Source: Candidatus Poribacteria bacterium
GTDB taxonomy: Bacteria > Poribacteria > WGA-4E > B28-G17
Length of the DNA stretch: 64,000 nt
Direction of reading: 5' to 3'
Assembly: GCA_021162805.1 (NCBI GenBank)
Contig: JAGGXZ010000036.1
Location: forward strand, 9,985-73,984
Both the position numbers and the translations under genes were made by a program. The notes under the pieces were generated by a model. That model saw only the letters and a list, made by a program, of their open reading frames with translations, made no database searches and was not told the DNA's origin. The stretch's first letter is position 1. Each line of letters begins with the position of its first letter. Below, piece after piece: positions 7,140 to 43,562 of the stretch.

Positions 7140-8458
7140 CTTCTCACACCTCCCTCCGGCTTGATAACGACCGTGTATTTGATGATCTCCTCCGCTCCGG
7201 GCGGGAGGGTAAGCTTGAAAAGTATCGTCTGAGCGTCCTTTCGCTCATAATCGTGGCTTTTGGAGGTGATCTCCCACTCGCCCCTGAACCTCTCGTAAAC
7301 TTCAACCTTGGCGGGGATCTCCCTGTGATTACGCACCTTTATCTGATATTCCTCCTCAGTGTCATATCCCGCCACCCGGTTGTTCTTATCGAACCTGAAG
7401 TTGATCTTGGCGAAGTTCATCCGTTTTCTTTCGACCGTGATCTCGCCCTGGGAGTTGAGGGTGAGCTTCACATCGCCGCTGACCGGCGTGAAATCGATCC
7501 TCGATTCACCTATCGGTATGATCTGATCTTTCTCCCGCCCGTAAACTATCACCCTCCCCGGCGGGATGGGAGCGGAGCCGAGGTTGTGCTCTTTGTCGTT
7601 TTTGAATCTGTATTGTTTAACGACCGATTCGCCGTATTTCGAGGGATCGAAGACATATACCACATCTATCGGCACCTCTTCGGCGGAGAGCCACATCAAC
7701 CTTTTGCCCCACTCGTTTTTGAGATCAGTTCGTCTTTCGACCGAGAGCAGATAATGCTCTGAGACCATCCCGGCCTCACCGGCCTGTCTCATGTTAGCCA
7801 ACGCCTCCGTCGTCACGAATTTCCGAGCGGCCGCTTCGATTACAGGTACAGGTGCTCTCAACGCTCCTCTGCCCGCTTTCCTCATCTCCTTTCGCATCCT
7901 GTCCATCTCCTCCGCCTTCGCCGCGTATCTCTCCCTTACCACCCTGTTGATCTCACCCGCCACGAGCTTGAGCGACACCCCTTTGAAATCCTCGCCGCTC
8001 TTGTTGGAGATCTCGACATATCCCTCTAGTGAAAGCTTGGTCTCATCCTCCGACGAGATGACAGTGTAGTCCACATCCCAGTCCATTCCACCGATGAAGT
8101 ATGTGATCTTCAGCGGTTTTCTGCCCCCTTCCTCCGTTTTGATCTTCCAGACGATCATGTTCGGCTCCTCAAAGGAGGAGATAGCCGTCTGGATCGAGAC
8201 GTCCGGGATCTGGGGAAGCAGTCTTATGGAGGATGGATCGATCCTGGTGTCAGCCCATCCGAATTGAAGCCTGTTTTCGCCCTTCCTCAGCGTGATCAAC
8301 CTGCTCTCCTCGACATAGGCTATGTCTATCCCCTTATAGATCGTGACTTTCACGGACTTGCGTCCTGGGATTGTGGAGAGCTGGACCTCTCCCCACGCGT
8401 TGAAAGAAAGCGTTAAAAAGGCCCACATTCCCAGTGTGACCCAGATTAACCTCAACAT
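7136..8458 (-). CDS. secreted DUF4140/DUF4139-like protein (TIGR02231 / MuiA-like family), paralog 2
   Basis: ORF track extends to 8650 but the extension is translation of palindromic repeats; plausible start is internal Met (MLRLIWVTLGMWAFLTLSFNAWG signal peptide) at ~8458; stop overlaps next gene by 4 nt. Confidence 0.5.
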   Translation of the reverse strand: MLRLIWVTLGMWAFLTLSFNAWGEVQLSTIPGRKSVKVTIYKGIDIAYVEESRLITLRKGENRLQFGWADTRIDPSSIRLLPQIPDVSIQTAISSFEEPNMIVWKIKTEEGGRKPLKITYFIGGMDWDVDYTVISSEDETKLSLEGYVEISNKSGEDFKGVSLKLVAGEINRVVRERYAAKAEEMDRMRKEMRKAGRGALRAPVPVIEAAARKFVTTEALANMRQAGEAGMVSEHYLLSVERRTDLKNEWGKRLMWLSAEEVPIDVVYVFDPSKYGESVVKQYRFKNDKEHNLGSAPIPPGRVIVYGREKDQIIPIGESRIDFTPVSGDVKLTLNSQGEITVERKRMNFAKINFRFDKNNRVAGYDTEEEYQIKVRNHREIPAKVEVYERFRGEWEITSKSHDYERKDAQTILFKLTLPPGAEEIIKYTVVIKPEGGVRR

Positions 8459-8499
8459 ACATCCCCTCCGATACGCTGGATTCGCCCATATTATCGTTG

Positions 8500-8575
8500 A
8501 GTGTAACGGAAATCCGATCCGTTGCGTTGTAACGTTCGCTGCGTGATTGCGTTTACTGCGTTGTGCGTTACGCGA
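8500..8575. repeat. GTAACG/CGTTAC-rich degenerate palindromic repeat block in divergent intergenic region
   Basis: GTGTAACGGAAATCCGATCCGTTGCGTTGTAACGTTCGCTGCGTGATTGCGTTTACTGCGTTGTGCGTTACGCG; contains AACGGA..TCCGTT inverted repeat and reiterated TGCGTT(N)ACG units; related block at 20832-20863. Confidence 0.6.
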
Positions 8576-8593
8576 TGAACGTATCTCCTTGTT

Positions 8594-8630
8594 GGATCGA
8601 TAACCGCTACACTCAAGGGAAATTTGAGCG
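8594..8630. repeat. conserved ~35-nt intergenic palindromic element, copy A (GGATCGATAACCGCTACACTCAAGGGAAATTTGAGCG)
   Basis: Near-identical to copy at 20891-20924 (32/34 nt), partial copies at ~30442-30465 and ~31883-31903 (minus); inverted repeat GCT(ACA)CTCAA-N7-TTGAGCG. Confidence 0.7.
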
Positions 8631-8705
8631 TGTTGAACTACTCCGACCACCTAGGAGATTATACCATAATTTACCGGGTGATGTCGGCTTCTCACGTTAA
8701 TCCTC

Positions 8706-8730
8706 GAACATTTTCCGCCGAAATTTCGTC
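8706..8730 (+). promoter_or_regulatory. ECF-type promoter (GAAC-N17-CGTC) upstream of ECF sigma factor gene
   Basis: tcGAACattttccgccgaaatttCGTCtaa about 40 nt upstream of TTG start at 8772; matches the -35 GAAC / -10 CGTC architecture of autoregulated ECF sigma promoters. Confidence 0.5.
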
Positions 8731-8771
8731 TAAGAGATCGAAGGTGAGATTGAAACCTATAGAGGAAAATC

Positions 8772-9326
8772 TTGAGTGGCGAAGAAATCGTGTTGATTCA
8801 GAGGTTGAAACAGGGGGACGAGAAGGCATTCGAACAGATCTTCCGCAGATATCAGAAGAGGGTTTACAACGTCGCCTACAGAATGACCGGCAATCGCGAG
8901 ACGGCGGAGGATATGACACAGGAGGTATTCCTCCGCCTCTTCCAGAAGATCCATAAGTTCAAGGGCAAATCCTCCTTCTCCACGTGGTTGTATCGCCTAA
9001 CCGTCAATTTATGTCTGGATCACCTGCGAAAACGGAACGCACACCCGACTGAGAGTCTGGAGGATATCGACGAGAAAGCCCTTATATACGAAAAAACCCC
9101 TGAGGATGATGTCATTCTGAGGGAACGCAGAGAGGCCATACAGAGGATAATCGGCTCTCTCCCCGGTAAAATGAGGGCCATAATAATCCTTCGTGAGATA
9201 GAGGGGTTGTCCTATAAGGAGATCGCCGAGGCGATGAGCTGTTCAATGGGAAGGGTTAAATCGCTACTGCATGAGGCCAGGATGGAACTAAAACGCCGGA
9301 TGGAGAGGAATAAGGGGGAATTATGA
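8772..9326 (+). CDS. ECF (sigma-70 family, group 4) RNA polymerase sigma factor
   Basis: 184 aa; region 2 (…YRMTGNRETAEDMTQEVFLRLFQKIHKFKGKSSFSTWLYRLTVNLCLDHLRKR) and region 4 HTH (LSYKEIAEAMSCSMGRVKSLLHEARMELK); TTG start. Confidence 0.9.
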   Translation: MSGEEIVLIQRLKQGDEKAFEQIFRRYQKRVYNVAYRMTGNRETAEDMTQEVFLRLFQKIHKFKGKSSFSTWLYRLTVNLCLDHLRKRNAHPTESLEDIDEKALIYEKTPEDDVILRERREAIQRIIGSLPGKMRAIIILREIEGLSYKEIAEAMSCSMGRVKSLLHEARMELKRRMERNKGEL

Positions 9327-9889
9327 TGAGATGTCGCAATGTGCGCAGGAAACTCTCCGAGTTTTTAGACGGCGAATTGGATGAGAGAACGCGGGAGGAG
9401 ATCCGTAGACACCTCGCGATCTGTGAGGGGTGTTCCAAGGAGTATGATGAGATGGTCGAGGCCGTCTCGCTCGTCCGGGCTCTTCCGAGGCTCGAACCTC
9501 CTGGGGATATGTGGCCGGCCCTTAAAATGAAGCTCGAAAGCGCTGGAAGATCGAGATTTACATGGCGGGAGCGATTGAAGAGGTTGACGGTTCAACCCAT
9601 GGTTCAACACCCTGTTCTCGCCCCTCTGATCCTGTTTATCGTCGCCGGGGCACTTGCCACAATGGGATGGTGGATGTTCACGAGATCGGGTTCGGATATC
9701 CCGGAGATGCAATTGCTCAGCTTATATGTTCAGGAACATGCCCGATATTACTCGCGGCAGATACTGCCTTCCGATCCGTTTCTGGAATCGGAGGTCGTTC
9801 GAGAGTTGAAAGCTCCCGCCAAGGTGAGGAAAACCGGATCGAGTTATGAGCTCCAAACGTATATCAGCTTGTATTACGAAGGAGAGTGA
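9323..9889 (+). CDS. anti-sigma factor with N-terminal zinc-finger (zf-HC2) and one TM helix
   Basis: 188 aa; MMRCRNVRRKLSEFLDGELDERTREEIRRHLAICEGCSKEY (H-x3-C-x2-C motif) then TM segment PLILFIVAGALATMGWWMF; 4-nt overlap with sigma gene. Confidence 0.8.
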   Translation: MMRCRNVRRKLSEFLDGELDERTREEIRRHLAICEGCSKEYDEMVEAVSLVRALPRLEPPGDMWPALKMKLESAGRSRFTWRERLKRLTVQPMVQHPVLAPLILFIVAGALATMGWWMFTRSGSDIPEMQLLSLYVQEHARYYSRQILPSDPFLESEVVRELKAPAKVRKTGSSYELQTYISLYYEGE

Positions 9890-9893
9890 GGTC

Positions 9894-10958
9894 ATGAAGG
9901 TGATGTGGGTTTGTCTCACATTGATGCTGTTGATAACCCTCCAGCCCAGGGGGGGACGGGATTTACCCGATCCTCAAGATATACTGAGGCAGATGGTGGA
10001 GGCTGAGAGGAGAGCTGATTTCGTGGGGAGGCGCCTGGTGATAGGTTTCGGCGGACGATATAACATGGTTCGAGAGGAGAAAGTGATAAATAAATCACCG
10101 GATAAGCAACGCATCGAAGTGCTAGCCCCGCCTGAGATCGCGGGCTCCGGGTTGATCCGGCTGGGGAGACGGGAATGGCGTATACCTCCGAAGGCAAAGG
10201 GAAAACCGTTCGGACCTCCCCCATATCGTCCCGGTCCTCCACCTCCTAAATTCGGCCGCTCACAGAGGGAATTGGAACTGATGCTCCATAACTACTCGGT
10301 GGGGATAAGCCCGGGAGGGAGAATCGCCGGACGGAGGACCTATCTGCTGGAGATAAAGCCGAAACACAAAGGAAGACCGTCCAGGAGGATATGGGTGGAT
10401 GCCGAAAAGGGCCTGCCGCTTAGGGTGGAGAACTACAACTCCGAAGGCGAGCTCAGATTCCTCGTAGTGTATACCGAGATCTCCTTCCCATCAAAGATGG
10501 AAGATAAACTGTTTGTTCCCCCGAAGGAGGGCGTTGAGGGCGAAAGGAAATTTAGAGGACCATACGGCGGAGGAGAATTAAACCTTGAGGAGCTGAGACG
10601 GAAGATCTCATTCCGTATACTTATCCCGGAGTTCCTTCCCGACGGCTTTGAATTTCAAAGCGCCGGACTGATAAGATATCAAAGGCGGGAGATAGCCCAC
10701 CTGCGGTATACCGATGGACTGGTGCTGCTATCGCTGTTTGAAACGAGCGGTGGAAGGCCGGAAGGACGACATAGAGCCCGGGAGAGGGAGATGGAAAAGC
10801 CGATCCAGATACTGGGCCTGAGATGTGAGTTGTTCTATGACGGTCAGTTGCGCATATTGCGGTGGGAAAAGGGAGGTATTAACTTCACCTTGATAGGGGA
10901 TCTGAGTGAGGGGGATATGACCAAGGTCGCCGAATCCCTGATAGCACAATCACGGTGA
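9894..10958 (+). CDS. RseB/MucB- or LolA-like periplasmic protein completing the sigma/anti-sigma operon
   Basis: Signal peptide MKVMWVCLTLMLLITLQP starting 5 nt after anti-sigma stop (ORF track start 9846 is an upstream extension); Pro-rich linker; position typical of RseB. Confidence 0.5.
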   Translation: MKVMWVCLTLMLLITLQPRGGRDLPDPQDILRQMVEAERRADFVGRRLVIGFGGRYNMVREEKVINKSPDKQRIEVLAPPEIAGSGLIRLGRREWRIPPKAKGKPFGPPPYRPGPPPPKFGRSQRELELMLHNYSVGISPGGRIAGRRTYLLEIKPKHKGRPSRRIWVDAEKGLPLRVENYNSEGELRFLVVYTEISFPSKMEDKLFVPPKEGVEGERKFRGPYGGGELNLEELRRKISFRILIPEFLPDGFEFQSAGLIRYQRREIAHLRYTDGLVLLSLFETSGGRPEGRHRAREREMEKPIQILGLRCELFYDGQLRILRWEKGGINFTLIGDLSEGDMTKVAESLIAQSR

Positions 10959-11009
10959 AATCCATTTTTGAAGCGCAAATAAATCCATCGCGTGATAATA
11001 TGAGCGAGT

Positions 11010-12605
11010 TCAAAAGGCGGTGCCGAGACTGACATGGATCTTGCCGTTCAGGATGGAATCGCCGCGGGCCAGGCCATAGCAGAGATTTAGCCTCCCCGAT
11101 TGAGCCTCCAATCTCGCCCCGATGCCATAACTGATCTGGAGCTGAGGCGGATTCATCGTTCCTAAATCGACGAAGAGGAACAGATGAGATCCCAAACCGG
11201 TCAGAAACCTGTATTCCAGATTCGCATATGCCATCGATCCTCCTTGAAACCACCCCTCCGTGTATCCTCTCAGCGTGTTGGCTCCTCCTAAGCTGAAGAG
11301 CTCAAACGGCGGTATATCCCGCCCGAAAAGCCTGCCAAGGTGAGCTCCTAAAGCCAGCACCTGATTTCGCCGCGTGGATAGATAAATTTGCGCTCCAAAG
11401 GTAAGTCTCCCCAAACGGTAATCCCCCGCCGTTATCCCCAAATTAACGCTCTCAACATCCCCGGATGTTGGATTCAGCGCATAATCCCGCACATCACGCC
11501 TGAAACCAGCTTCAAATCTAACCGCCCTGTTCCTCATACCGTTCAGCTCGGCCGTCTCGTATGAGAACCCTCCCTTGATGAGATATCTGAAGTTCAATCT
11601 GCTGATAAGCGATATTCCATAGGATTTGAATCCCGCCTGACGTTCATACCTCAAACTTAGATCGATCGGTCTGCCCAAGATCCAGGGCTCAAGATATCGG
11701 AACTCGATCCGTTTCGACTCAGCCGAACGCCACTCGAAATGAAGCGCTCTTCCGCTGCCGAGTATGTTCGTCTCATCGATGAAGATCGTCCCTGTCAATT
11801 TCGCCCTACCTCCGGGAGTGATCGGTGGGGCGTATCCCAGCAGGCCCTCGATTCTCCCGCTGTGGGCCTCCGTCACGTGGGGATTGAATATGACCTCACC
11901 CGGCCTCTCACTTCTCTCGATCGCCTTCGGCTCCACATCATATATGTAGGGCATGTTCCTGAGCAGACGGATCGACTCATCGACAAGGCTCTGTCGATAC
12001 GGCATGCCCGCTCTGATGGGAAGCTGACGGAGTATCACCTTGGGCTTGGTCTTCTTAAGCCCCGTCACCCTGACGTCAGCTATCCTAACCGGATCTCCCT
12101 CATCGATCATTATATCAAAGTTGAGCTTCGATCGATCCTTGGAGAGCCGAAATTCAGTTAGGCTCATGCGTGCGAGCGGATATCCCTTTTCGGCGTAGAT
12201 CCTGAGAACCCGCTCGATCCCCTCATTGATTCTTCCAACGTCGAATTCCCCTCCCAGTTTCAACGCTCTCCTGATCTCCTTCTCGCTTAGGATCGAATTT
12301 CCAACGATCCGTATATCCCCGATCTTGACCCTTCTCCCCTCGTTCACCTTCAGGGTCAGCTTCATTCCCCCTTTGCCGCTCGGCTGAAACGAGTAATCGA
12401 TAGACGCAAAGAGATATCCGCGCCTGACATATTCCCTAAGTACCTTGGAGATCGCCGGTTCAATCTCCTCCTTTGAGACCTCCCCGCCTGGCGTGAGCTG
12501 GAGAGTTCGAAGCAGATCTGCCCTTGAGATGATCTTATTTCCGGTTATCTCGATCGAATCCACCTTCACAGCGGCGATGATGAACGTGAGGGTGATTATG
12601 ATCAT
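11010..12605 (-). CDS. Omp85-family outer-membrane protein (BamA/TamA-like) with POTRA domains and C-terminal D15/surface-antigen beta-barrel
   Basis: 531 aa; POTRA-like repeats (IRIVGNSILSEKEIRRALKL…), C-terminal barrel ending …KIHVSLGTAF (aromatic terminus). Confidence 0.85.
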   Translation of the reverse strand: MIIITLTFIIAAVKVDSIEITGNKIISRADLLRTLQLTPGGEVSKEEIEPAISKVLREYVRRGYLFASIDYSFQPSGKGGMKLTLKVNEGRRVKIGDIRIVGNSILSEKEIRRALKLGGEFDVGRINEGIERVLRIYAEKGYPLARMSLTEFRLSKDRSKLNFDIMIDEGDPVRIADVRVTGLKKTKPKVILRQLPIRAGMPYRQSLVDESIRLLRNMPYIYDVEPKAIERSERPGEVIFNPHVTEAHSGRIEGLLGYAPPITPGGRAKLTGTIFIDETNILGSGRALHFEWRSAESKRIEFRYLEPWILGRPIDLSLRYERQAGFKSYGISLISRLNFRYLIKGGFSYETAELNGMRNRAVRFEAGFRRDVRDYALNPTSGDVESVNLGITAGDYRLGRLTFGAQIYLSTRRNQVLALGAHLGRLFGRDIPPFELFSLGGANTLRGYTEGWFQGGSMAYANLEYRFLTGLGSHLFLFVDLGTMNPPQLQISYGIGARLEAQSGRLNLCYGLARGDSILNGKIHVSLGTAF

Positions 12606-12608
12606 GGG

Positions 12609-13355
12609 TCAGACCTCTGTCGGTTGATCCTCTTTTCTGCCTATGAAGTAAACGGCCGAGGCTATCAGGTGGGAGTTAGGTAGTCTGATGAGGATCGGGT
12701 CGAGAATGATAACCATTGGGAAGGTGATCCAGCCGAAGATGAGCGAGATCGCCTTACCGATCCAAAAATTACCGAAGGAAAGTGCGATCCCCACCAACTC
12801 GCGCATCACCCAATGTAGGGCGCTCGCTGGCCCCACACACGGCCCGGACTCGATCCTCCGGAAATCCGAGAGCAATTTCTCCAGGCCGGTCACCGTATAT
12901 CGCTGATAATCGTTCGGTGAGGCATGATACCCTTGTATGAAGGGCACCGCCACACAGATGTATCCTCCGGGTTTTAGAACTCTCCGGATCTCATAGATCA
13001 CAGCTTTCGGATCGGGCACGTGTTCCAGCACTGCCTCGCTTATGACGGCGTCGAACGATTCATCTTTGAACGGCAGCATCGCTCCGTCGCCTATCACGTC
13101 CACATTCGGAAATGGCTCGATATCCAGGTTAACCACACTTGACGCCCACCTTCGGTTACCGGAGCCCAGATCAAGGGCGATCCCCTCATCGCCTATCTCC
13201 CTGAGGATCCTCCTTACGGCTTTATCCCACCTAGGTGCCCTGTAGGGACATCCGGAGAGATTCCAGAGTATTCTGTTTCTGCGGAGGAAGGATTTCAGGC
13301 TCGACTCAACACCCTCCGATATACGTCGAGGTATCTCTCGGCTATCCTGGCCCAA
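12609..13355 (-). CDS. class I SAM-dependent methyltransferase (Methyltransf_11-like) with C-terminal TM segment
   Basis: LDLGSGNRRW (motif I), FDAVISEAVLEHV, VLKPGGYICVAVPF (motif post-II); 60-nt overlap with downstream GT4 ORF suggests the true start is uncertain. Confidence 0.7.
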   Translation of the reverse strand: MGQDSREIPRRISEGVESSLKSFLRRNRILWNLSGCPYRAPRWDKAVRRILREIGDEGIALDLGSGNRRWASSVVNLDIEPFPNVDVIGDGAMLPFKDESFDAVISEAVLEHVPDPKAVIYEIRRVLKPGGYICVAVPFIQGYHASPNDYQRYTVTGLEKLLSDFRRIESGPCVGPASALHWVMRELVGIALSFGNFWIGKAISLIFGWITFPMVIILDPILIRLPNSHLIASAVYFIGRKEDQPTEV

Positions 13356-14440
13356 TCGTATCTCTCGACCGATCTGATCGCCTCGGCGCCCATCCTGATT
13401 CTGGCCTGGCCGTCCTCTATCAGGAGCGAGATCCTATCGGCGAGCGCCTGAGAATCAGAGGGATCCTCGATCAGGTATCCGTTTACCCCGTCGTGAACCA
13501 GCTCCTCGATCCCCTGCACTTTAGTGGCGACGACGGGCAATCCCATAGCCATCGCCTCAAGCACGACCAGAGGCATTCCTTCGGCCGAGGAACAGAGCGT
13601 AAAAAGATCGGCTGATTCATACCTCTTATGAAGCCTTTCATACGGGATGGTCCCCGAAAAGACCACGAGATCATCGACCTTGAGCTTTTTTGCAAGCTCT
13701 TTCAGCTCATCCATCATGGGGCCATCCCCGACGATCTCCACTGTGAACTTTCTCCCCGTCATCCCCCTCAGGTGAGGCAGGGCGGATATCAGATGATGGA
13801 ACCCTTTGCGCGGGATGAGTCTTCCTATTGAGAGAACCCTGACCACGTCCGGCTCGGCCTCGCGTTTTGGCGCGTGGAATCGAGATAGATCTATGCCATC
13901 CGGTATGACCTCTATCCGTGTCTCCGGATCGGTCCGCAGAGCTAGCTTCCTCAATCCTTCGCTACATGCGATGACTGCCCCGGCCGAACGCCATATCGCC
14001 CTTATGGCCGGTTTGAGGATCGGATAGAGGTAACGATAGTAAGGAGGATCGGGGTTAGGTCTGGGCACATCCCTGCCGCCCAGGAACACGACGTACGGAT
14101 ATCCCGTCGTCTTACCTATCGCGTATGCCACGGGACCTGATGGGATGCCGAAGAAAACCTGAACGATATCCGGACGGATGACGGGGACATATCTGAACGA
14201 CCAGACAAGGGCACTCAGGATGTAGGTGAACATCTCATGCACTTTAGCTACGTTCGGGCTTCTCCGGATCACCGGAACCCGATAAACCTTAACCCCATCG
14301 ATGATCTCATGCCGTGGCAGTCGATCGAAATGGGACGTGACCAAGGTGACATCATGACCCCGCCTTGCGAACTCCCTCCCGAGATATCTGGTAACGATCC
14401 CGCCTCCACCACCTATGGGGGGGAATTCGTAATTGACCAT
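13295..14440 (-). CDS. GT4-family glycosyltransferase (GT-B fold)
   Basis: 381 aa; N-term MVNYEFPPIGGGGGIVTRYLGREFARRGHDV and C-term EGMPLVVLEAMAMGLPVVATKVQGIEELV (E-x7-E motif region). Confidence 0.85.
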   Translation of the reverse strand: MVNYEFPPIGGGGGIVTRYLGREFARRGHDVTLVTSHFDRLPRHEIIDGVKVYRVPVIRRSPNVAKVHEMFTYILSALVWSFRYVPVIRPDIVQVFFGIPSGPVAYAIGKTTGYPYVVFLGGRDVPRPNPDPPYYRYLYPILKPAIRAIWRSAGAVIACSEGLRKLALRTDPETRIEVIPDGIDLSRFHAPKREAEPDVVRVLSIGRLIPRKGFHHLISALPHLRGMTGRKFTVEIVGDGPMMDELKELAKKLKVDDLVVFSGTIPYERLHKRYESADLFTLCSSAEGMPLVVLEAMAMGLPVVATKVQGIEELVHDGVNGYLIEDPSDSQALADRISLLIEDGQARIRMGAEAIRSVERYDWARIAERYLDVYRRVLSRA

Positions 14441-14459
14441 CAGTATTCGCAGCTTCCTA

Positions 14460-15344
14460 TCATCGACTTTTATACCGCGATCTATCTACATTACCTCCAT
14501 ATCTGAGAACATAGAAGATGACGTTGGTCATGAATCTATATACGTCATTCGACCTTCGTCGGGCCAGCAGGGTTCGGCTTGGCACCTCAACCGTTTCCAT
14601 ACAGCACATGTAATCCTTTCGGTTATATATAACGGCCCATCTCCCCTTGATCTTGATCCCCCGTATGTAGGGGAAAAGCGATTGTGCCTTGATGTTCTCT
14701 GACCCCCAGAAGACATCCCCCCCGGTAGGAGGTCCGGGGAGCTTGTAGTAGATCTTGAAAATCCTGTCGGTCCGCCGTATGGGTTCTATCTGATACTCAG
14801 GTAGGGTCAATCTCAGTTCCTCCCTCACCCTACCAGCGAAAAGGCCCTTGAAACCACAGTCGTCGAAGAAGAGCGTGCCCTTCCTCTCGACGAGATACTT
14901 CCGAAGCATCCTTCTCTCCTGTGGGGTCAAAGATGTGACGAGCCTGAAGGGTGGGCCGTTCCTGCCATCCCTTTCGAGGTTATGCTGGAAGACCACCCCT
15001 TCATCGTGTCCCGTCATGATGATCAGCGGTGCATCTAGTATTCTGGGATCGGTCAGCTCGAGTGAGCCATCGCCTATCCGCATATCGGCTCTGATCCTGG
15101 TTCTGGTCTGAAGCCACTCGATCAAACCGGTAAGCGCCGTCGGATCCTGCCACCAGTCCGCCATCCTGTGTTTTAACCTCACCAACCTGATAAACCCATC
15201 GGCGTTTAAGCCTCTCCCTATCAACACGCCCCCAAGTTTACCCGGCGGAAGCGACGGACCGGACTCATCGGTCTCCCCAAAGGATGAAGAAGGCCCCATG
15301 AAAGCGATAGACAAACCGACCATGCATATGATGATCCCTTTCAT
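14460..15344 (-). CDS. DUF4159-like protein (GATase1-like fold family), secreted; paralog of 15831-17192
   Basis: 294 aa with signal peptide; shares long blocks (GFIRLVRLKHRMADWWQDPTAL, TGHDE, GTLFFDDCGF..LFAGRVREEL, GPPTGGD.FWGSEN, GRWAVIYNRKDY.CCMET) with the paralog; family assigned from memory. Confidence 0.5.
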   Translation of the reverse strand: MKGIIICMVGLSIAFMGPSSSFGETDESGPSLPPGKLGGVLIGRGLNADGFIRLVRLKHRMADWWQDPTALTGLIEWLQTRTRIRADMRIGDGSLELTDPRILDAPLIIMTGHDEGVVFQHNLERDGRNGPPFRLVTSLTPQERRMLRKYLVERKGTLFFDDCGFKGLFAGRVREELRLTLPEYQIEPIRRTDRIFKIYYKLPGPPTGGDVFWGSENIKAQSLFPYIRGIKIKGRWAVIYNRKDYMCCMETVEVPSRTLLARRRSNDVYRFMTNVIFYVLRYGGNVDRSRYKSR

Positions 15345-15354
15345 CTTTCCCGCT

Positions 15355-15591
15355 CTACTCAGCTTTCAGGGCAACAGGTACTCGGGCGATAAGGCGTATA
15401 TCGTCCTGAGGCACTTGCTGCCCTTCCTCCGATAACACTTCCAGATGTAAGGTGATAGCCTCCCTCACGTTCTGCAGTGCTTCTTCAATCGTCTCACCTT
15501 GTGAGAAACATCCCGGCAGCGCCGGTACCTCCACCCAATATCCTCCCTCTTCAGCATCGTGAATGATAACGGTATAATCCATTGACTCCAC
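15355..15591 (-). CDS. hicB: HicB-family antitoxin (UPF0150)
   Basis: 78 aa; YTVIIHDAEEGGYWVEVPALPGCFSQGETIEEALQNVREAI is the canonical HicB RNase-H-like N-domain; GTG/ATG start. Confidence 0.8.
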   Translation of the reverse strand: MESMDYTVIIHDAEEGGYWVEVPALPGCFSQGETIEEALQNVREAITLHLEVLSEEGQQVPQDDIRLIARVPVALKAE

Positions 15592-15592
15592 C

Positions 15593-15783
15593 TCATAGTA
15601 GATTGATGAATTCTTCCTCAGTTAATCCTGCTTTACGAATAGCTGCCTTGAGCAAACCAACTTTAATTTCCCCTGTAACAGGAATAGTGATCAATTGTCC
15701 ATTTGGCATTTTGATGTTAACATGACTGCCTTTCCCTTGCGAACTTCACCCCCCCGCTCGTTTAAAGGCTCTGACAGCTTCAT
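15593..15783 (-). pseudogene. hicA: hicA toxin gene with a -1 frameshift (GGG->GG) early in the ORF
   Basis: Minus-strand ATG AAG CTG TCA GAG CCT TTA AAC GAG CGG GGG GGT GAA GTT CGC AAG GGA AAG G|CA… gives MKLSEPLNERGGEVRKGK then stops after 29 codons; shifting one base restores GKGSHVNIKMPNGQLITIPVTGEIKVGLLKAAIRKAGLTEEEFINLL* (HicA GSH…ILKQAGL architecture), ending 1 nt before hicB start; 191 nt, not a multiple of 3. Confidence 0.65.
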
Positions 15784-15830
15784 ATCCTTTTATACCTCGT
15801 AATAAACGTCCCTGCATCTTTATCATTCAC

Positions 15831-17192
15831 TTACGGCTTATACTGAGATCTATCCACGTTACCTCCATACTTCATGGCGTAGAAGAGGAGGTTCGTCATG
15901 AACTTATGCACGTCGGTCGATCGACGCAGTCTCAGCAACGTTCTGCTCGGTATCTCCATCGTCTCCATGCAGCAGAGGTAATCCTTCCGGTTGTAGATAA
16001 CCGCCCATCTTCCGTTTATTTTAACCCCCCATTGATACGGGAACTGGGAGGCATGTGGATTGTTCTCCGAGCCCCAGAAGATATCCCCGCCCGTCGGTGG
16101 ACCGGGCAGGGTATAATAGACGCTGTAAAGCTCATCGTTTTTATCTATGATCTGGAGCGGATATTCGGGCAGTGCCCTCCTGAGCTCCTCTCTGACCCTT
16201 CCGGCGAACAGCCCGTGAAATCCACAGTCATCGAAGAAAAGGGTGCCTTTTCTGTCGATCAGATACTTCCGTAGGGCGGCCCTCTCCTCGGGGGTGAACT
16301 CCTGGGCGAGCTGGAACTTGGCGCCTTTCTGCCCGTCGCTGTTCATGTGATGGTTCAAAACCACATCCTCATCATGTCCCGTCATAATGACCAGCGGAGC
16401 GTCCAGTATCCTCGGATCGGTCAGTTCGAGCGCTCCTCCCTCGATGCGCATGTCGGCCTTTAGCCTTGTGTGCTCCTCAAGCCAGTCGATGAAGCTGGCC
16501 AACGCCGTCGGGTCCTGCCACCAGTCCGCCATCCTATGCTTCAGCCTTACGATTCTGATGAACCCCATCACGTCCTTCCCCTTCCCGACCAGAACGGCGC
16601 CGAGTTTCCCTTCGGGGATATAGTAGAGCTTCGCCATATCACCGCTCAGTTCCCCACCGAGATCCACCTCGCCGGAGGTATTAACCAGCGACAATCCGGG
16701 CTGTTTGTTTATGCCGAGAGCTCTGACCCTTCCCGTCTGGAATCCCTTTCCAATCTTCAATCCTTTAGGCGATCCACCTGAGGGCGACAGGGAGATATCC
16801 CCGATCTTGGCGGGGATTTTAGCGGTGGTGTCCAGCTTGTTGACCATCCCCAGCTCCTTATCGGCGTTGACGTCGAGGCTACGGGGGATGATGTTAGGCG
16901 CCTTGGCGACGACCTCGGAGATCACGTTATCGGACTGAACGGATAACTTCGGGACGTTTTTATCCTCGAGATCCCTTTCAATGTCGAACTTAGGCTTGAT
17001 CGTCTTGGTCAACGGCCTTCTCGGCGGCCTCACCCTGTAATTGGACATATCGACCAGTTCGATCCAGGCGCCTGATCCCTCATTATAGGTCGTCCTTATG
17101 GCTAAACCCAGGATTATTATCCCTATCAGGTGCGCGACCAAGGCTATGAGAAAGGCCGATGTGGTCGGCCTCCTTTTGAACATCTCTCTCAC
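15831..17192 (-). CDS. membrane-anchored DUF4159-like protein (N-terminal TM helix, ~200-aa linker, C-terminal DUF4159-like domain)
   Basis: 453 aa; TM SAFLIALVAHLIGIIILGLAI; C-terminal half collinear with 14460-15344 paralog. Confidence 0.5.
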   Translation of the reverse strand: MREMFKRRPTTSAFLIALVAHLIGIIILGLAIRTTYNEGSGAWIELVDMSNYRVRPPRRPLTKTIKPKFDIERDLEDKNVPKLSVQSDNVISEVVAKAPNIIPRSLDVNADKELGMVNKLDTTAKIPAKIGDISLSPSGGSPKGLKIGKGFQTGRVRALGINKQPGLSLVNTSGEVDLGGELSGDMAKLYYIPEGKLGAVLVGKGKDVMGFIRIVRLKHRMADWWQDPTALASFIDWLEEHTRLKADMRIEGGALELTDPRILDAPLVIMTGHDEDVVLNHHMNSDGQKGAKFQLAQEFTPEERAALRKYLIDRKGTLFFDDCGFHGLFAGRVREELRRALPEYPLQIIDKNDELYSVYYTLPGPPTGGDIFWGSENNPHASQFPYQWGVKINGRWAVIYNRKDYLCCMETMEIPSRTLLRLRRSTDVHKFMTNLLFYAMKYGGNVDRSQYKP

Positions 17193-18411
17193 CTTCTTTT
17201 ATATGTATCTTCAATCTGATTTTATCCCCTTTACCATCTTCTATGTCGGCTGAAAGCCTCTCCATATATCCCAGTGGGGTCAAACTTCCCAGCGATTCAT
17301 ACACCAGCTTGGATCTCCTATCCTTACTTGCAAGGGCGGCTAAGGAGAACATCAGAGAGAACTTCTTTATCTCACGGCTCAGATTCCGCAGGTCGACTTC
17401 GAGATGTCCAACCGGATCGATCTTCACGTTCCAATCGGCATCCCTCAAAAATAAGGCCACTCTTTCAACGGATTCCAGAGGTGTTCCGATGACAACCTTG
17501 CCCTTTAAACGGATATATCCTGCCGATATCGGGACGGGGATCGGGCCGGATATCCGAAGGGGTGAGATCTCAATCTCATCTCTTTTCACCTTGGGCATCT
17601 CCTTTATCGTCATTCCCTTCCTCAGCAGAAGGGATCTGAGCCATTCCAGTCCCTTATCATCCGTTACGACCGTTACGCTTGGTGACATTCCTCCCCCAGG
17701 TGAGAGAAACAGGGCGTCGATATGTCCGGTCCGGAGATAGAGGGTCAATAAGGCGTCAGGGGGTTGGGGCGGCAGGAAATCACCCTTTTCGGCCGATGGC
17801 AGTGGAATTCCGGATATTCGCAGTTCGTTCTCTGAGATTATCTCATCTCCGAGGTTTCGATTGACCGAGATCCACTCCCCTTCGGCGACCTTCAAGGTGT
17901 CTAAGTCGACGTAGAGGGAGAGATCTGATTTCACAAGCGATCGGGCGATCTCCGGCCTTCGCCTGGCGAAGCAATCGCCGCCATCCCGATAGAGATCTAT
18001 CGATCTCTTAAGCAAGCCCTTATCCGTGCTGAGAAGGCCGAGCTTCCCGATAAAGGTATAATGAAACCTACGTGGAAATCCGGAGTTGACCGTGGTGATG
18101 TTACATCCTCTATACCTCTCGTTCGTTATCCCATAGTAGTTCTTCGAGGCGGTTGCCTGTGAGGTGGTGATCTCAACCTTCCCCTGGGATGATACGAAGG
18201 ATGCCATAAAGAGCTCCGTCCTACCCTTACGGTAGAGGGCCAGGACGCTCCTGTCACCGGCCACCTTTCTAAGATCTTCGATTTTAAATGGGACTCCAAA
18301 CCCGAACTCCCACATCTTTAGCTGCCATTTCATCTCCCTCCACCATTCCCTCCCCTTGATGTATCTCGCTATGGGGGTTTCGGATATCTCTCTGGCGAAA
18401 TCCGACTTCAT
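17083..18411 (-). CDS. hypothetical protein (442 aa), first gene of the minus-strand array; start uncertain
   Basis: Long ORF with no recognisable motif; 3' end overlaps next gene by 110 nt in a different frame; in-frame upstream 60 codons encode a signal-anchor helix (KRKLFFIIPVLIISVAAAGYISF) after a perfect SD GGAGGTGATC but contain no ATG/GTG/TTG. Confidence 0.4.
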   Translation of the reverse strand: MKSDFAREISETPIARYIKGREWWREMKWQLKMWEFGFGVPFKIEDLRKVAGDRSVLALYRKGRTELFMASFVSSQGKVEITTSQATASKNYYGITNERYRGCNITTVNSGFPRRFHYTFIGKLGLLSTDKGLLKRSIDLYRDGGDCFARRRPEIARSLVKSDLSLYVDLDTLKVAEGEWISVNRNLGDEIISENELRISGIPLPSAEKGDFLPPQPPDALLTLYLRTGHIDALFLSPGGGMSPSVTVVTDDKGLEWLRSLLLRKGMTIKEMPKVKRDEIEISPLRISGPIPVPISAGYIRLKGKVVIGTPLESVERVALFLRDADWNVKIDPVGHLEVDLRNLSREIKKFSLMFSLAALASKDRRSKLVYESLGSLTPLGYMERLSADIEDGKGDKIRLKIHIKEGERDVQKEADHIGLSHSLGRAPDRDNNPGFSHKDDL

Positions 18412-18728
18412 GATTTCTTCGGCGATTTGAGCGAAGTTGGAGGATGTGAGGCAGAGAAAAGGGCTACCGGGAACGATATAGATCAGCTCGGCCCGTGGCT
18501 TATAAAAATATCTAAATGATATATATCCCGCTGCGGCGACCGATATTATGAGAACCGGTATGATGAAGAAAAGCTTCCTTTTGATCTTCGATCACCTCCG
18601 GATCGGCATCATAGTAAATCTTACCATAAGGGTGGGTTGAATCTCAACATCTTATGCACGGGCGGAGGTTTTATGCTATAATTTACACGAAGCATAACAG
18701 CCGCCGTTACTTTGGAGGAGAAGGGTAG

Positions 18729-20804
18729 ATGAAAGAATACAGGACGGAACAGATCAGAAATGTCGCTTTAATAGGCAATGCCGGTTCAGGTAAAACTTCA
18801 TTGATCGATGCCTTTCTATTCGACGCCGGAGCAGTTGACAGGCTCGGGCGGGTTGACGCCGGTAACTCCTTTGTGGATTACGATCCTGAGGAGATAAATC
18901 GAAAGACCACGCTGAGTCTGAAGATATGTATCGCCGAATGGGGAGAGTGCAAACTGAATATCCTCGATACGCCGGGTTATGAGGACTTCTACGGCGATTT
19001 GGCCAGTGCCTTGAGGGTTGTCGATTCCGCCTTGGTCGTGATCGATGCCGTTACAGGCGTCGGAGGCGGGACGGAGAAAAGTTGGATGATGGCTGATAAA
19101 TACGGACTGCCGAGGGCGATCGTCATAAACAAGCTCGATGCCGAACAGGCTGACTTTGACGGGGTAATCGATCAGATCCAACAGGAGCTGGGCGCCAGGC
19201 TTATGCCGCTACATATCCCGATAGGCAGGGGGAGCTCCTTCTCCGGCATAGTCGACATCATCTCGATGAAAGCCTATCAGTTCGAGGGAGAGGGCAGCGG
19301 GAAGTTTGAGGAGAAGGACATACCGGGGGAACTGTTCTCCAGGGCGGAGGAGCTCCGAGAATCCTTGATAGAAGCGGCAGCGGAGGGCGAGGATGAGCTG
19401 ACCGAGAAATACCTCGAGGGCGAGGAGCTCACGCCGGATGAGATAATGAGGGGATTGAAGGCCTCTATCCGCCAGGGAATCGTCGTTCCGGTGATGTGTG
19501 CATCGGCGTATCAGAACATCGCTGTGCCGTTCATCCTGGATTTCATCGTCAAATCGCTCCCCTCACCCGTCGAATCGAAACCGATAGAAAGCGTCGATGG
19601 CGAGGAAAACCGTGATCCCTCTCCCGATGCCCCGTTGGCGGCTTTGGTCTTCAAGACGACCTCCGACCCGTACGTCGGGAAAATCAGCTACATCAGGGTC
19701 TTTTCGGGAACCCTCAGCGCCGATTCACAGGTCTTCAACTCAAGTAGAGGAGCAGGTGAAAGGGTTACGAAGCTCTACCACCTCAACGGGAAAAACCAGA
19801 TCGAAACCCCCAAGATCATAGCCGGTGATCTCGGAATAGCTGTCAAGCTTCAATCTGCTTCCACTGGCGATACCCTCTGCGCGCCGGACGCCAAGATAAC
19901 CCTGCCGGGGATCGAGTTCCCCAAACCCGTTCTCTCGCTCGCCATATCAGCCAAAAGCCAGAGTGACGACGATAAACTGAGCACTATCCTCACCTCAATA
20001 GCTGAAGAGGATCCGACCTTCCAGGTTCAACGCGATCAGGAGATGAGACAGGTGATCGTCTCCGGATTGGGCGACGTGCATCTGAACGTCACCCTGGAGA
20101 GGATCAAACGCAGATACAACATCGAGGCGACCACAGCGACACCTAAGGTTCCTTATCGCGAGACGATACGCAAATCGGTTGAGGGGATACACGCCCGCTA
20201 TAAGAAACAGACTGGCGGAAGAGGGCAGTTCGCCGATGTGGTCATAAAGATGGAACCGCTTCCACGGGGAGAGTATTTCGAGTTCGTGGATGAGATCTTC
20301 GGCGGGGCGATCCCGCGCAACTTCATCCCGGCGGTCGAGAAGGGGATCAGGAACTCGATGCAGAGCGGAGTGCTGGCCGGTTTTCCCGTCGTCGACATCA
20401 AGGTAACCCTCTATGACGGCAAGTTCCATCCGGTCGACTCCTCCGATCTGGCTTTCCAGATAGCCGCCTCCATGGCCTTTAAAGAGGCGATGCAAAAGGC
20501 CGATCCGGTGCTGCTCGAGCCGATAATGAATGTTGAGGTCACCGTGCCGGAGGAGCATATGGGCGATGTGTTGGCTGACCTCAACAGCCGCCGCGGCAGA
20601 GTGCTTGGCGTCGATCAACAGGGTAAATATCAGGTGATCAAGGCTCAAGTGCCTATGGCAGAGATGTTTAGATATGCTCTTGATCTGCGATCGATGACCA
20701 GCGCGAGGGGATGGTTCACGATGGAGTTCTCGCACTACGAGGAGGTGCCATACGACATCGCCCAGAAGATCATCGCCGCCGCTCAGGCCGAAAAGGAGGA
20801 TTGA
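18729..20804 (+). CDS. elongation factor G-family translational GTPase (EF-G paralog with atypical P-loop)
   Basis: 691 aa; G domain (NVALIGNAGSGKTSLIDA, DTPGYEDF, NKLD), domains II-V collinear with EF-G; G1 is GNAGSGKTS rather than AHIDAGKTT of canonical FusA. Confidence 0.8.
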   Translation: MKEYRTEQIRNVALIGNAGSGKTSLIDAFLFDAGAVDRLGRVDAGNSFVDYDPEEINRKTTLSLKICIAEWGECKLNILDTPGYEDFYGDLASALRVVDSALVVIDAVTGVGGGTEKSWMMADKYGLPRAIVINKLDAEQADFDGVIDQIQQELGARLMPLHIPIGRGSSFSGIVDIISMKAYQFEGEGSGKFEEKDIPGELFSRAEELRESLIEAAAEGEDELTEKYLEGEELTPDEIMRGLKASIRQGIVVPVMCASAYQNIAVPFILDFIVKSLPSPVESKPIESVDGEENRDPSPDAPLAALVFKTTSDPYVGKISYIRVFSGTLSADSQVFNSSRGAGERVTKLYHLNGKNQIETPKIIAGDLGIAVKLQSASTGDTLCAPDAKITLPGIEFPKPVLSLAISAKSQSDDDKLSTILTSIAEEDPTFQVQRDQEMRQVIVSGLGDVHLNVTLERIKRRYNIEATTATPKVPYRETIRKSVEGIHARYKKQTGGRGQFADVVIKMEPLPRGEYFEFVDEIFGGAIPRNFIPAVEKGIRNSMQSGVLAGFPVVDIKVTLYDGKFHPVDSSDLAFQIAASMAFKEAMQKADPVLLEPIMNVEVTVPEEHMGDVLADLNSRRGRVLGVDQQGKYQVIKAQVPMAEMFRYALDLRSMTSARGWFTMEFSHYEEVPYDIAQKIIAAAQAEKED

Positions 20805-20807
20805 GAA

Positions 20808-20884
20808 GGAACGAGGAACTAGGAGCGGAAAACGTTACAACGTTAAACGTTGAACGTGTAACGGATTTCCCTTCTCCTCGTTCC
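20808..20884. repeat. inverted-repeat-flanked palindromic element (GGAACGAGGA … TCCTCGTTCC) enclosing CGTTACA-AACGTT-AAACGTT-TGTAACG core
   Basis: 10-bp terminal inverted repeat at ~20808-20817 / 20875-20884; core 20833-20863 has 7-bp IR CGTTACA/TGTAACG around two self-complementary AACGTT hexamers; shares GTGTAACGGAWWTCC with 8500-8515. Confidence 0.6.
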
Positions 20885-20890
20885 TCCTCA

Positions 20891-20924
20891 TGGATAACTG
20901 CTACACTCAAGGGGAATTTGAGCG
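20891..20924. repeat. conserved intergenic palindromic element, copy B (TGGATAACTGCTACACTCAAGGGGAATTTGAGCG), 3 nt before ATG at 20928
   Basis: 32/34 identity with copy A at 8594-8630. Confidence 0.7.
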
Positions 20925-20927
20925 AAT

Positions 20928-30400: not shown

Positions 30401-30441
30401 ACGCTCACATTATTAACGTTGGGATGTTTTCCCATCAATTA

Positions 30442-30465
30442 CTACGCTCAAGGGAATTCCGAGCG
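30442..30465. repeat. partial copy C of the conserved intergenic palindromic element (CTACGCTCAAGGGAATTCCGAGCG)
   Basis: Shares CTAC-CTCAAGGGAAT and terminal GAGCG with copies A/B; forms CGCTC-N11-GAGCG inverted repeat; sits between 821-aa gene stop and a truncated CocE/NonD remnant. Confidence 0.5.
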
Positions 30466-30500
30466 TGGATGAAAGGAAGGGAAGATGAGGAGGGCCGAAT

Positions 30501-43519: not shown

Positions 43520-43562
43520 TGAGCGATACTTACTGAAAATATAGCCCGCCGGCACCTGGTAG

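Follow-up and report, generated by a model that had tools for sequence, protein, structure and literature searches.

A probable family of composite palindromic repeats in intergenic regions of a Poribacteria-like bacterium

We consider it moderately probable that the GTAACG and AACGTT palindrome blocks found in the window (the whole stretch of 64,000 nucleotides analysed) form the variable interior of composite palindromic repeats, which this uncultured Poribacteria-like bacterium would carry between genes as a low-copy, lineage-restricted family. The family is closest in kind to REP dimers, BIMEs and REPINs, and to MITEs. Comparison of close strains shows that the interiors turn over quickly, through slippage of repeats and through deletion or insertion of hairpins. 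Since the blocks are dispensable and variable between close strains, they look like an ordinary genomic repeat rather than an array of regulator-binding sites.

A 32-nt unit in inverted pairs

An earlier note had described palindrome blocks at two loci sharing the motif GTGTAACGGAWWTCC. Both blocks exist, with correct coordinates, and the motif occurs exactly twice in the 64 kb, at 8501 and 20856. The note had missed that GTGTAACGG, read as its reverse complement, is the core of the adjoining 32-nt "conserved element", so that each locus is an inverted pair of a repeated unit of about 32 nt, GATAACYGCTACACTCAAGGGRAATTTGAGCG. The paired units have their GATAAC ends inward and their TTTGAGCG ends outward. 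The spacer between them is different at each locus and is itself palindromic, and the entire element can thus be folded as one long nested hairpin. Three such elements were identified in the window: A (8483-8630), B (20802-20925) and C (30401-30466). GTAACG is enriched in the window (29 matches for 11.2 +/- 3.3 expected), and 5 of the 8 AACGTT occurrences fall inside the three elements. The unit carries a 5-7-5 dyad, CTCAA-N7-TTGAG, its own stem being AT-rich and 5 bp long; a GTAG/CTAC tetranucleotide adjoins the palindromic part, and the complementary strand of the unit reads …GTGTAGCGG. The dyad and a TG are missing from the left-hand copies and from element C.

Element A, an imperfect palindrome of 148 nt, combines an inverted unit pair with an inner block and sits within the 313-nt gap between a DUF4139-family gene (7136-8458, minus strand) and an ECF sigma gene (plus strand). 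Its sequence is the same in six assemblies of one strain. The A-left unit (8483-8514, minus strand) is an inverted, diverged copy, GATTTCCGTTACACTCAACGATAATATGGGCG, matching the unit at 24/32 positions (nhmmer E = 3e-7); read on the plus strand it includes the GTGTAACGGAAATCC already recorded. The A-right unit (8599-8630, plus strand; GATAACCGCTACACTCAAGGGAAATTTGAGCG), also found with nhmmer, is the "conserved element" itself. The two arms agree at 24 of 32 positions, the maximum among 2000 shuffles being 20. Between them, the inner block (8515-8598) contains TGCGTT four times (at 8523, 8548, 8557 and 8564), GTAACG at 8529 (plus) and 8566 (minus), AACGTT at 8531 and an inner inverted repeat (8532-8544/8570-8582). 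The gene calls of the six assemblies place the DUF4139 start at 8458, giving a 440-aa protein whose N-terminus resembles a signal peptide. The 64-codon N-terminal extension was thus rightly called spurious: an open reading frame reaches 8650 only because the block has no stop codons.

At locus B, the EF-G stop codon marks the start of a long nested hairpin (20802-20890, plus strand). The 10-nt inverted repeat GGAACGAGGA/TCCTCGTTCC (20808-20817 and 20875-20884) is real, though enclosed in a larger repeat of 16 nt, 94% complementary, which starts from the same stop codon (20802-20817/20875-20890). It had been proposed as the terminal repeat of the family; GGAACGAGGA is however confined to locus B, and the repeat that defines the family is the 32-nt unit. 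The 7-nt repeat CGTTACA…TGTAACG is also present. Where two AACGTT hexamers had been counted there are three, at 20831, 20839 and 20846, forming a tandem array of AAACGTT x 3.9 (20830-20857, plus strand). B-left (20849-20870, minus strand) is a degenerate inverted unit core, GGAAATCCGTTACACGTTCAAC, which includes GTGTAACGGATTTCC on the plus strand and is weak by nhmmer alone (E = 8). The B-right unit (20891-20925, plus strand), supported by nhmmer, ends 2 nt 5' of the ORF251 ATG (20928), with a junction, GAGCG/AATATG, also found in relative L022.

Element C (plus strand, nhmmer E = 4e-7) is a compact copy of 66 nt, in which a short middle separates the left tail CGCTCACATTATTAACGTT from a right unit matching at 22/32 positions (30434-30466). 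Its neighbours are, on one side, the stop codon of a gene coding for 821 aa and, on the other, a truncated gene of CocE/NonD type which keeps only positions 73-216 of the PepX_C profile.

Short segments bounded by inverted repeats upstream of secreted-protein genes (A, B and a pair in relative L004) recall invertons, whose recombination sites the inverted unit pairs would then be, flipping of the segment toggling the adjacent surface or secreted-protein genes. The ACGTTCG-like words of block A also resemble the inverted-repeat consensus of Bacteroides Mpi-controlled switches, which serves as a lead towards invertons only. Such a switch is very improbable. One orientation was found throughout, in six independent assemblies at locus A and three at locus B; inversion would have to act on very short spacers (22-84 nt), and the arms at A are just 75% complementary. 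Moreover, no transposase or recombinase was detected among the 37 window ORFs scanned, nor in the Pfam columns of the gene tables of L007 and L023, which cover 1-20,800. A by-product of gene duplication was also considered as the origin of the unit family, and ruled out.

Recurrence and turnover among relatives

The earlier note had suggested looking for presence/absence differences among relatives, and such differences were found at both loci (in L026 at A, in L018/L019 at B). L026, of the same species (~96-97% nucleotide identity), lacks exactly 8499-8617, a 119-nt segment comprising the entire GTAACG/GCGTT block and both unit cores, while its flanks are 96-100% identical. The end points are nearly symmetric, with 1-nt microhomology, and the difference is better explained by deletion of the hairpin than by insertion. 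The best presence/absence case being a deletion, transposition is not directly seen. The A-left tail CGATAATATGGRCGAATCC is kept in L026 and in L027. In the latter (82% orthologue), this tail, GTGTAACGG and ACGTT words are all retained upstream of DUF4139 in a rearranged form, a retention which indicates that the element at locus A is old.

In L024/L025 (98-99% identical in the flanking genes), the AAACGTT array is one 7-nt repeat shorter, a 28-nt hairpin is inserted, splitting the B-right unit, and 2-3 substitutions are clustered in the unit downstream of the insertion. The complementary strand of the L024 insertion reads GTAG-GGGCGAAAG…CGCCC-GTAC. This inserted hairpin is perfect, and its arms resemble the nearby 5' end of ORF251 (GATTTTCGCCC). 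The more distant L018/L019, with the same EF-G-to-ORF251 order, exhibit an unrelated 13-bp hairpin at the B position and no unit. In L004/L003, an inverted unit pair occurs in another gene context, flanked by the genes of an ABC ATPase and of a secreted hydrolase. L022 carries units at both ends of the ORF251-ORF345 module; its 3' copy directly follows the ORF345 stop codon, a position at which the window and L018 have none, and this copy alone looks like a gain. Finally, an exact-pattern scan retrieved only one locus in a related MAG and one in the metagenome of that MAG. The copy number appears low: the 64 kb of the window hold about three loci, and the related MAG gave one exact hit.

Quasipalindrome or hairpin-associated mutagenesis, as in palindrome instability in E. 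coli, proceeds at inverted repeats by slipped mispairing and by template switching. The strain differences are exactly of that type: loss of a 7-nt repeat, deletion of a hairpin, insertion of a perfect hairpin. This is a mutational process and not an element family; it accounts for the change of the inner blocks and leaves the recurrence of the 32-nt unit at unrelated loci and lineages unaccounted for.

Promoters, operators and RNA folds

A consensus scan detected a sigma-70-type promoter-like site with an extended -10 (8658-8687, minus strand; CCGACA-18-TGGTATAAT) directed at the DUF4139 gene, and a similar site, TGATATAAT, lies upstream of the L027 orthologue. If this putative promoter is functional, element A would fall in the 5' leader of the DUF4139 operon. 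On the other strand, the sigma operon has an ECF-type promoter outside element A (8706-8733, plus strand; GAACATTTTCCGCCGAAATTTCGTCTAA). This promoter of the sigma factor itself, GAACATTTT…CGTCTAA, is the only close match within the window and is kept upstream of four sigma orthologues (L012, L013, L014 and L015, down to 61% identity), which carry no palindrome block. The element as sigma promoter was consequently rejected. The same observation runs counter to the array of dimeric-regulator sites in a divergent promoter envisaged in the earlier note, as do the absence of the entire block in a same-species strain and the position of block B at the EF-G 3' end, where there is no divergent promoter.

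The 32-nt unit might also be a cis-regulatory site (protein operator or alternative-sigma promoter) of a small set of secreted-protein operons, namely those of the DUF4139 pair, of ORF251-ORF345 and of the L004 hydrolase, with the palindromic blocks as incidental spacers. We regard this as unlikely. Several units do face a start codon (B-right and its L022 counterpart 2 nt upstream, A-left ~25 nt) or, for L004-left, lie ~20 nt upstream of a ribosome-binding site, and the downstream products have signal-peptide-like N-termini; but L004-right and the L022 3' copy face away from genes or into gene 3' ends, and the true promoter stands between A-right and sigma, which are 140 nt apart with A-right upstream. 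Also in favour are the dyad and the resemblance of TGCTACACT, found in B-right and L004-right, to the extended -10 (TGnTATAAT) of candidate promoters in the window, yet dyad and TG are lost in the left-hand copies and C. A low copy number would be compatible with a regulon, whereas same-species L026 lost both unit cores of locus A and L018 has none at B. Between lineages, right-hand units share 90-97% identity where the proteins share 81-88%. They are nevertheless conserved almost throughout, would-be spacer included, which suggests copying rather than selection on contact positions, and at locus B the excess of unit over coding identity (26/29 vs 84%) is not significant.

Secondary-structure prediction, another check proposed beforehand, showed that loci A and B fold far better than shuffled sequence (z = -3.9 as RNA and -3.2 as DNA for A, -4.8 and -6.2 for B). 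Across copies, z ranges from -3.2 to -6.4, the short element C giving -1.8, and the interiors are palindromic everywhere though unrelated in sequence. Selected structured RNAs (leaders, attenuators, intercistronic processing or terminator hairpins) would fold as strongly; the likeness between loci would then be a shared RNA motif, and the sequences would differ because only the fold matters. Every locus is in a plausibly transcribed region, L018 keeps a hairpin of unrelated sequence right after the EF-G stop codon, B-left can pair with the upstream CGTTACA or with B-right to form alternative stems, and just 5' of the ORF251 start the unit hairpin has a purine-rich, ribosome-binding-site-like loop. 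We still hold this account to be quite doubtful. Palindromic DNA repeats yield such folds for free, and in the L022 3' copy, C, L024 and A-left, changes in the CTCAA/TTGAG stem break pairs with no compensation. A same-species strain with unchanged flanks has lost the structure at A by deletion, no U-tract follows the hairpins, and Rfam gave no match above noise for the elements, so that a known RNA family is not indicated.

Relation to known repeats and possible effects

In published descriptions, REP dimers pair two oppositely oriented units that fold together into larger structures; they carry a GTAG tag, lie mostly 3' of genes and are plausibly transcribed (Di Nocera et al. 2013, PMC3733652; Bertels & Rainey 2011, PMC3337134). 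Like REPs, BIMEs and REPINs, the present family has a short unit, inverted pairs with variable linkers that fold into a larger hairpin, and GTAG/CTAC beside the palindromic part. It is intergenic, mostly 3' of or between co-directional genes and plausibly co-transcribed, as well as dispensable and strain-variable, and the 28-nt L024 insertion is REP-like in form. It differs by its apparently low copy number, by the AT-rich 5-bp stem of its unit (typical REPs have a GC-rich stem of at least 8 bp) and by the position of GTAG, which lies across the small stem, on the other side from classical REPs, with GTAA in the left-hand copies.

With bacterial MITEs (Correia/NEMIS, ERIC, Nezha) the elements share their size (66-180 bp), imperfect terminal inverted repeats and non-coding nature. 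Element C moreover abuts a truncated gene, as at rearrangement junctions. The MITE-like reading put forward earlier holds insofar as this is a repeated palindromic element bounded by inverted repeats, located at intergenic, non-orthologous sites and present or absent among relatives. It does not extend to the interiors, which are unrelated from copy to copy, nor to target-site duplications, none being visible at the elements; no transposase was detected among the 37 window ORFs scanned, no insertion sequence was found whose matching ends would make it the parent, and the clearest indel, that of L026, is better taken as a palindrome deletion than as an insertion. Lacking both a target-site duplication and a shared interior, the family is not a classical MITE.

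By analogy, the repeats would most likely spread through a hairpin-recognising single-strand transposase (RAYT or IS200/IS605-like) or by recombination. The strong conservation of right-hand units across lineages could instead mean a sequence-specific function. The elements lie in probably transcribed intergenic stretches: the putative DUF4139 5' leader, the EF-G-to-ORF251 spacer and the spacer 3' of the 821-aa gene. At locus A the element may form a structured leader; at locus B the hairpin may act as a 3' stem-loop of the EF-G message, as terminator or stabiliser, and the unit would supply a purine-rich stretch just 5' of the ORF251 start codon. For this bacterium, the elements would be essentially selfish or neutral DNA, with incidental effects exerted via RNA or DNA hairpins.

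Inverted pairs of a 32-nt unit

The 32-nt unit GATAACYGCTACACTCAAGGGRAATTTGAGCG was found at positions 8599-8630 and 20893-20924, and an inverted, diverged copy lies at 8483-8514, matching the unit at 24 of 32 positions where the best of 2000 shuffles reached 20. The copies at 8483-8514 and 8599-8630 form the 32-nt arms of element A (8483-8630; 24/32 matching), within which the core TTGAGTGTARCGG matches at 12 of 13 positions. At locus B (20802-20925), a degenerate unit core is present in inverted orientation at 20849-20870, and inverted cores also occur in a metagenome locus from a relative (L004). Since inverted copies are found at both loci, each locus corresponds to one unit arranged as an inverted pair. 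The palindrome blocks and the adjacent conserved element, treated as distinct in the earlier note, are not separate things; read on the other strand, the motif GTGTAACGG highlighted there is the unit core CCGYTACAC. Within the pairs, the GATAAC ends point inward and the TTTGAGCG ends are outermost. The enclosed spacer differs from locus to locus and is palindromic in its own right.

Element C (30401-30466), a third copy, has a left tail similar to the left arm of A and a right unit at 30434-30466. It is flanked on one side by the stop of an 821-aa gene and on the other by a CocE/NonD-type hydrolase remnant (30489-31013, plus strand), in which positions 73-216 of the 217 of the PepX_C profile are kept and the N-terminal catalytic part is gone. 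The truncation point of the hydrolase is about 25 nt or less from the outer end of element C, so that this repeat marks a deletion or rearrangement junction.

The sequence features reported by the earlier note at 8500-8575 and 20808-20884 are indeed present. The motif common to both blocks, GTGTAACGGAWWTCC, occurs only at 8501 and 20856 in the 64-kb window, and the word GTAACG is over-represented (29 matches in the window, for 11.2 +/- 3.3 expected). Block B contains three AACGTT hexamers instead of the two counted previously; they belong to a 7-nt array, AAACGTT x 3.9, delineated at 20830-20857 by Tandem Repeats Finder. The 10-nt inverted repeat GGAACGAGGA/TCCTCGTTCC (20808-20817 and 20875-20884) could not be retained as a terminal repeat of the family, being found only at locus B and in its strain orthologues. 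It is contained in a 16-nt repeat, 94% complementary (20802-20817/20875-20890), which begins at the EF-G stop codon.

Copies in relatives and turnover between close strains

Large collections that do not include the source genome were scanned by exact pattern, a procedure blind to diverged copies. One real relative was recovered per collection: a single locus in a related MAG (L003) and a single locus in its metagenome (L004). There, an inverted unit pair encloses a 30-bp GA/CT-rich hairpin and is flanked by the genes of an ABC ATPase and a secreted hydrolase, a context other than those of the window. The source-given names of the closest homologues point to Candidatus Poribacteria. Four other loci from the collection scans (L001, L002, L005 and L006) were discarded as chance matches, two of them lying inside unrelated coding or AT-rich sequence. 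A viral origin was likewise discarded: one scan yielded nothing, and the other a pair of small IMG/VR viral contigs of about 2.5 kb, homologous to each other. Both carry TTGAGTGTAGCGGAAATCCGA, a 21-nt match to the left arm of A (L028 734-752 and L029 169-187), and chance would account for this many hits in a collection of that size.

A 1853-bp Logan contig (L022) encodes an ORF251 81% identical to that of the window. It carries one unit directly 5' of the ORF251 ATG, with the same junction as in the window (GAGCG|AATATG), and a second, inverted unit directly after the ORF345 stop codon. The window and a 76% relative (L018) exhibit a different terminator-like hairpin after this stop and no unit, a presence/absence difference between relatives. 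Each end of L022 breaks off exactly 30 nt inside a unit. If Logan assemblies are built with k = 31, the assembly behaviour indicates that the 30-mer of each unit would have more than one context in that sample. The repeats may also contribute to contig breaks in the assemblies of this lineage, L003 ending in an element and L022 both beginning and ending in one. In a 62% relative (L020/L021), the ORF251-ORF345 module (window 20928-22720) directly follows nadA and not EF-G. This module, bracketed by inverted units in L022, may be movable as a block.

Closer comparisons at locus B revealed further changes. In L018/L019 (76% identical), the EF-G to ORF251 order is kept and the 57-nt gap holds an unrelated 13-bp hairpin without the unit, similarity resuming at AAATATG. 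In L024/L025, where the flanking genes share 98-99% nucleotide identity with the window, there is one AAACGTT repeat fewer, 2-3 substitutions are clustered in the unit, and a perfect 28-nt hairpin, GTACGGGCGAAAAATCTTTCGCCCCTAC, is inserted between GATAACT and CTACAC. The insertion (1081-1108, equivalent to window 20900/20901) has arms that resemble the 5' end of ORF251 (GATTTTCGCCC), one in inverted and one in direct orientation. This suggests, from the sequences compared, an origin by template switching; alternatively, it would be a REP-like GTAG-tagged hairpin. No further copy of it was found in the window or the compared loci. A hairpin with a 21-bp stem, AGTAGTAGGGGTGAGACATTC…GAATGCCTCGCCCCTACTACT, follows a sulfatase gene at 43559-43609 and, like the L024 insertion, contains CGCCCCTAC. 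This hairpin could be a terminator, or else a further type of GTAG/CTAC-tagged palindrome in this genome.

At locus A, exactly 8499-8617 is missing in L026, from the same species (about 96-97% identity), CGCCCATATTATCGTT being joined to GGAAATTTGAGCG. This second case of presence/absence is better read as a deletion. An intact unit spans the right-hand junction, and the unit is whole at B, in L004 and in L022; therefore the short form results from a hairpin deletion and is not an empty insertion site. On the same grounds, and since no tail palindrome was detected on its own, we rejected the insertion of 8499-8617 into a small palindrome already in place. In an 82% DUF4139 orthologue (L027), GTGTAACGG, ACGTT words and the left tail of A are still present, though rearranged, 5' of the gene, and the element is therefore old at locus A. 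In kind, the strain differences match what slippage and hairpin-stimulated deletion or insertion would produce, and they illustrate these routes of change in nested palindromes.

Two other observations were made in the window. At about 15590-15790 (L007 16820-17012, L023 16822-17013), the hicA toxin gene beside hicB is called as intact (63 aa) on a 76-kb JGI contig (L023); only a 30-aa fragment is called on the window-identical assemblies and L023 is 1 nt longer at hicA, which suggests a frameshift in the strain of the window. A 2509-aa ORF on the minus strand (46673-54202) comprises a dockerin domain besides 11 Big_1, He_PIG, PKD and cadherin-like domains, and matches Por_Secre_tail weakly; judging by these domains, its product resembles a giant adhesin of the cell surface.

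Neighbouring promoters and candidate functions

Locus A occupies part of the 313-nt gap between a DUF4139 gene pair (minus strand) and an operon encoding an ECF sigma factor, a zf-HC2 anti-sigma factor and a MucB/RseB protein (plus strand). The DUF4139 ORF at 7136-8650 is over-extended: gene calls from independent assemblies give 440 aa starting at 8458, preceded by a GGAGGGG ribosome-binding site, confirming that the 64-codon N-terminal extension was spurious. For annotation, the blocks account for this false extension. A candidate sigma-70-type site with an extended -10 (TGGTATAAT) was noticed on the minus strand at 8687-8658. By this consensus match only, the DUF4139 operon would include element A within its 5' leader; the element might then act as a structured leader. 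Candidate promoters with a canonical extended -10 were listed at 8656-8666, 18672-18682, 31917-31927 and 43636-43646 (TGGTATAAT, TGCTATAAT, TGGTATAAAT and GTTTATAAT, respectively) and should be useful for transcription-unit annotation in this uncultured lineage.

The ECF sigma promoter lies elsewhere. In all four sigma orthologues examined (L012, L013, L014 and L015, with 88%, 83%, 73% and 61% identity), GAACATTTT-N-CGTCTAA is found directly upstream of the gene and corresponds to an ECF-type promoter at window 8706-8733. No unit was detected upstream of these orthologues, a short stretch, CCGATCCGTTACGGAACGTT, being kept in L013 only. The earlier note had proposed an array of dimeric-regulator sites in the divergent promoter; the orthologues lacking the unit while conserving the 8706-8733 motif remove such sites as an explanation of the blocks. 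TGTAAC-N16/17-CGTT does occur within the blocks. An autoregulated ECF promoter is expected to combine -35 (G)AAC and -10 CGT(C) at a fixed spacing conserved among orthologues, which is not the case of the blocks. This candidate was rejected, the sigma orthologues having no blocks and conserving GAACATTTT…CGTCTAA. In the 73% orthologue (L014, 1-90), another word-palindrome block made of GTCATT/AATGAC repeats (GGTCATTTGTAGTCATTGAGTCATT…AATGACTATAAATGACC) is located 5' of the conserved ECF promoter. The contig begins inside this block, analogous to the GTAACG/CGTTAC one with a different word.

Locus B separates EF-G from ORF251 and ORF345, two unknown genes whose products have signal-peptide-like N-termini. 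Neither gene is paralogous to the DUF4139 pair, and a gene duplication was discarded as the source of the common upstream element. A small peptide encoded by the unit was also discarded: at B, a 13-codon upstream ORF has its ATGA end overlapping the ORF251 start, and the frame has no start in L004 and is not preserved elsewhere. Nor was extra purifying selection on the unit at B significant (26/29 positions, for 84% coding identity). At this locus, the hairpin could serve the EF-G message as a 3' stem-loop, while the unit could supply the purine-rich stretch 5' of the ORF251 start.

Several units lie just upstream of secreted-protein genes and the right-hand units are very well conserved, as a cis-regulatory site would be. 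However, other units point away from genes, nearly every position is conserved in a manner resembling copying, and units are lost in close strains; we consider a cis-regulatory role rather unlikely. Both loci are predicted to fold much better than shuffled controls, the z-scores being -3.9 (RNA) and -3.2 (DNA) at A and -4.8 and -6.2 at B. An RNA structure maintained by selection is nonetheless quite unlikely, less likely than cis regulation, as changes in the small stem break pairs without compensation and Rfam gives no match. Rfam covariance models detected no known RNA family over the whole window, and local E-value searches returned nothing at A and, at B, only generic hairpin matches scoring well short of the gathering threshold. 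An informal comparison by eye with the consensuses of sigma-54, sigma-E (TCAAA), sigma-B/F-like and Bacteroidetes-type promoters, attC and IHF sites gave no consistent fit across copies. Any function of the repeats is probably incidental.

Resemblance to MITE and REP elements

The MITE-like character proposed earlier holds in part. The elements have inverted-repeat ends, occur at non-orthologous sites (three window loci, L004 and the L022 3' copy) and vary in presence between relatives. However, no direct repeat indicative of target-site duplication flanks the outer ends of A, B, C, L004 or the two L022 copies, several copies being available at one end only, and A, B, C and L004 have no interior sequence in common. 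No transposase or recombinase was detected among the 37 window ORFs scanned nor among the Pfam entries tabulated for the genes of L007 and L023 (covering 1-20,800), and no RAYT transposase was found in the window. An invertible switch, requiring a recombinase to flip the segment between the repeats, is most improbable, none being found in these ORFs and tables and the segment having a single orientation in all assemblies.

REPs of the GTAG super-family are palindromic units of 20-40 bp, one end of which bears GTAG (or CGTC) as an unpaired tag (PMC3733652), and REP dimers associate GTAG-tagged units of opposite orientation into larger folds, mostly downstream of genes and plausibly transcribed (PMC3733652, PMC3337134). 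The present repeats match REP dimers in outline, opposite-orientation pairs forming larger folds in A, B and L004. The complementary strand of the unit reads CGC-TCAAATTTCCCTTGA-GT-GTAG-CGG (also given as …GTGTAGCGG), with GTAG in right-hand copies and GTAA in left-hand copies. The stem of the unit is only 5 bp long and AT-rich, and classical REPs have the tag on the other side. Three loci occur in 64 kb, but the exact-pattern scans, blind to diverged copies, gave one locus each in L003 and L004, and the copy number seems low. Considering this seemingly low copy number, the short AT-rich stem, the lack of target-site duplication and common interior, and the absence of a transposase from the ORFs and tables scanned, we assigned the repeats to neither MITEs nor GTAG-REPs, only to the same kind of element. 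The data fit a family of composite palindromic repeats, low in copy number and restricted to one lineage, that is akin to REP dimers, BIMEs and REPINs or to MITEs; its inner GTAACG/AACGTT blocks are the fast-changing spacers.

A more specific reading, which we regard as unlikely, sees in the unit pairs an active and so far undescribed mobile element of Poribacteria, similar to REPINs. It would be moved by a dedicated single-strand transposase that recognises hairpins and has its gene elsewhere in the genome, and it would insert preferentially at or into other hairpins. Such insertion would yield nested palindromes, and the 28-nt GTAG…GTAC hairpin next to CTAC in L024 and the L022 copy after ORF345 would be recent transpositions.

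To our knowledge, such palindromic elements have not been described in this uncultured phylum, and our literature search found no earlier description of them there. The family should not surprise specialists of bacterial repeats and would be more interesting only with an associated transposase or a sequence-specific function. The composite repeat family delineated here documents small palindromic repeats in an uncultured phylum.
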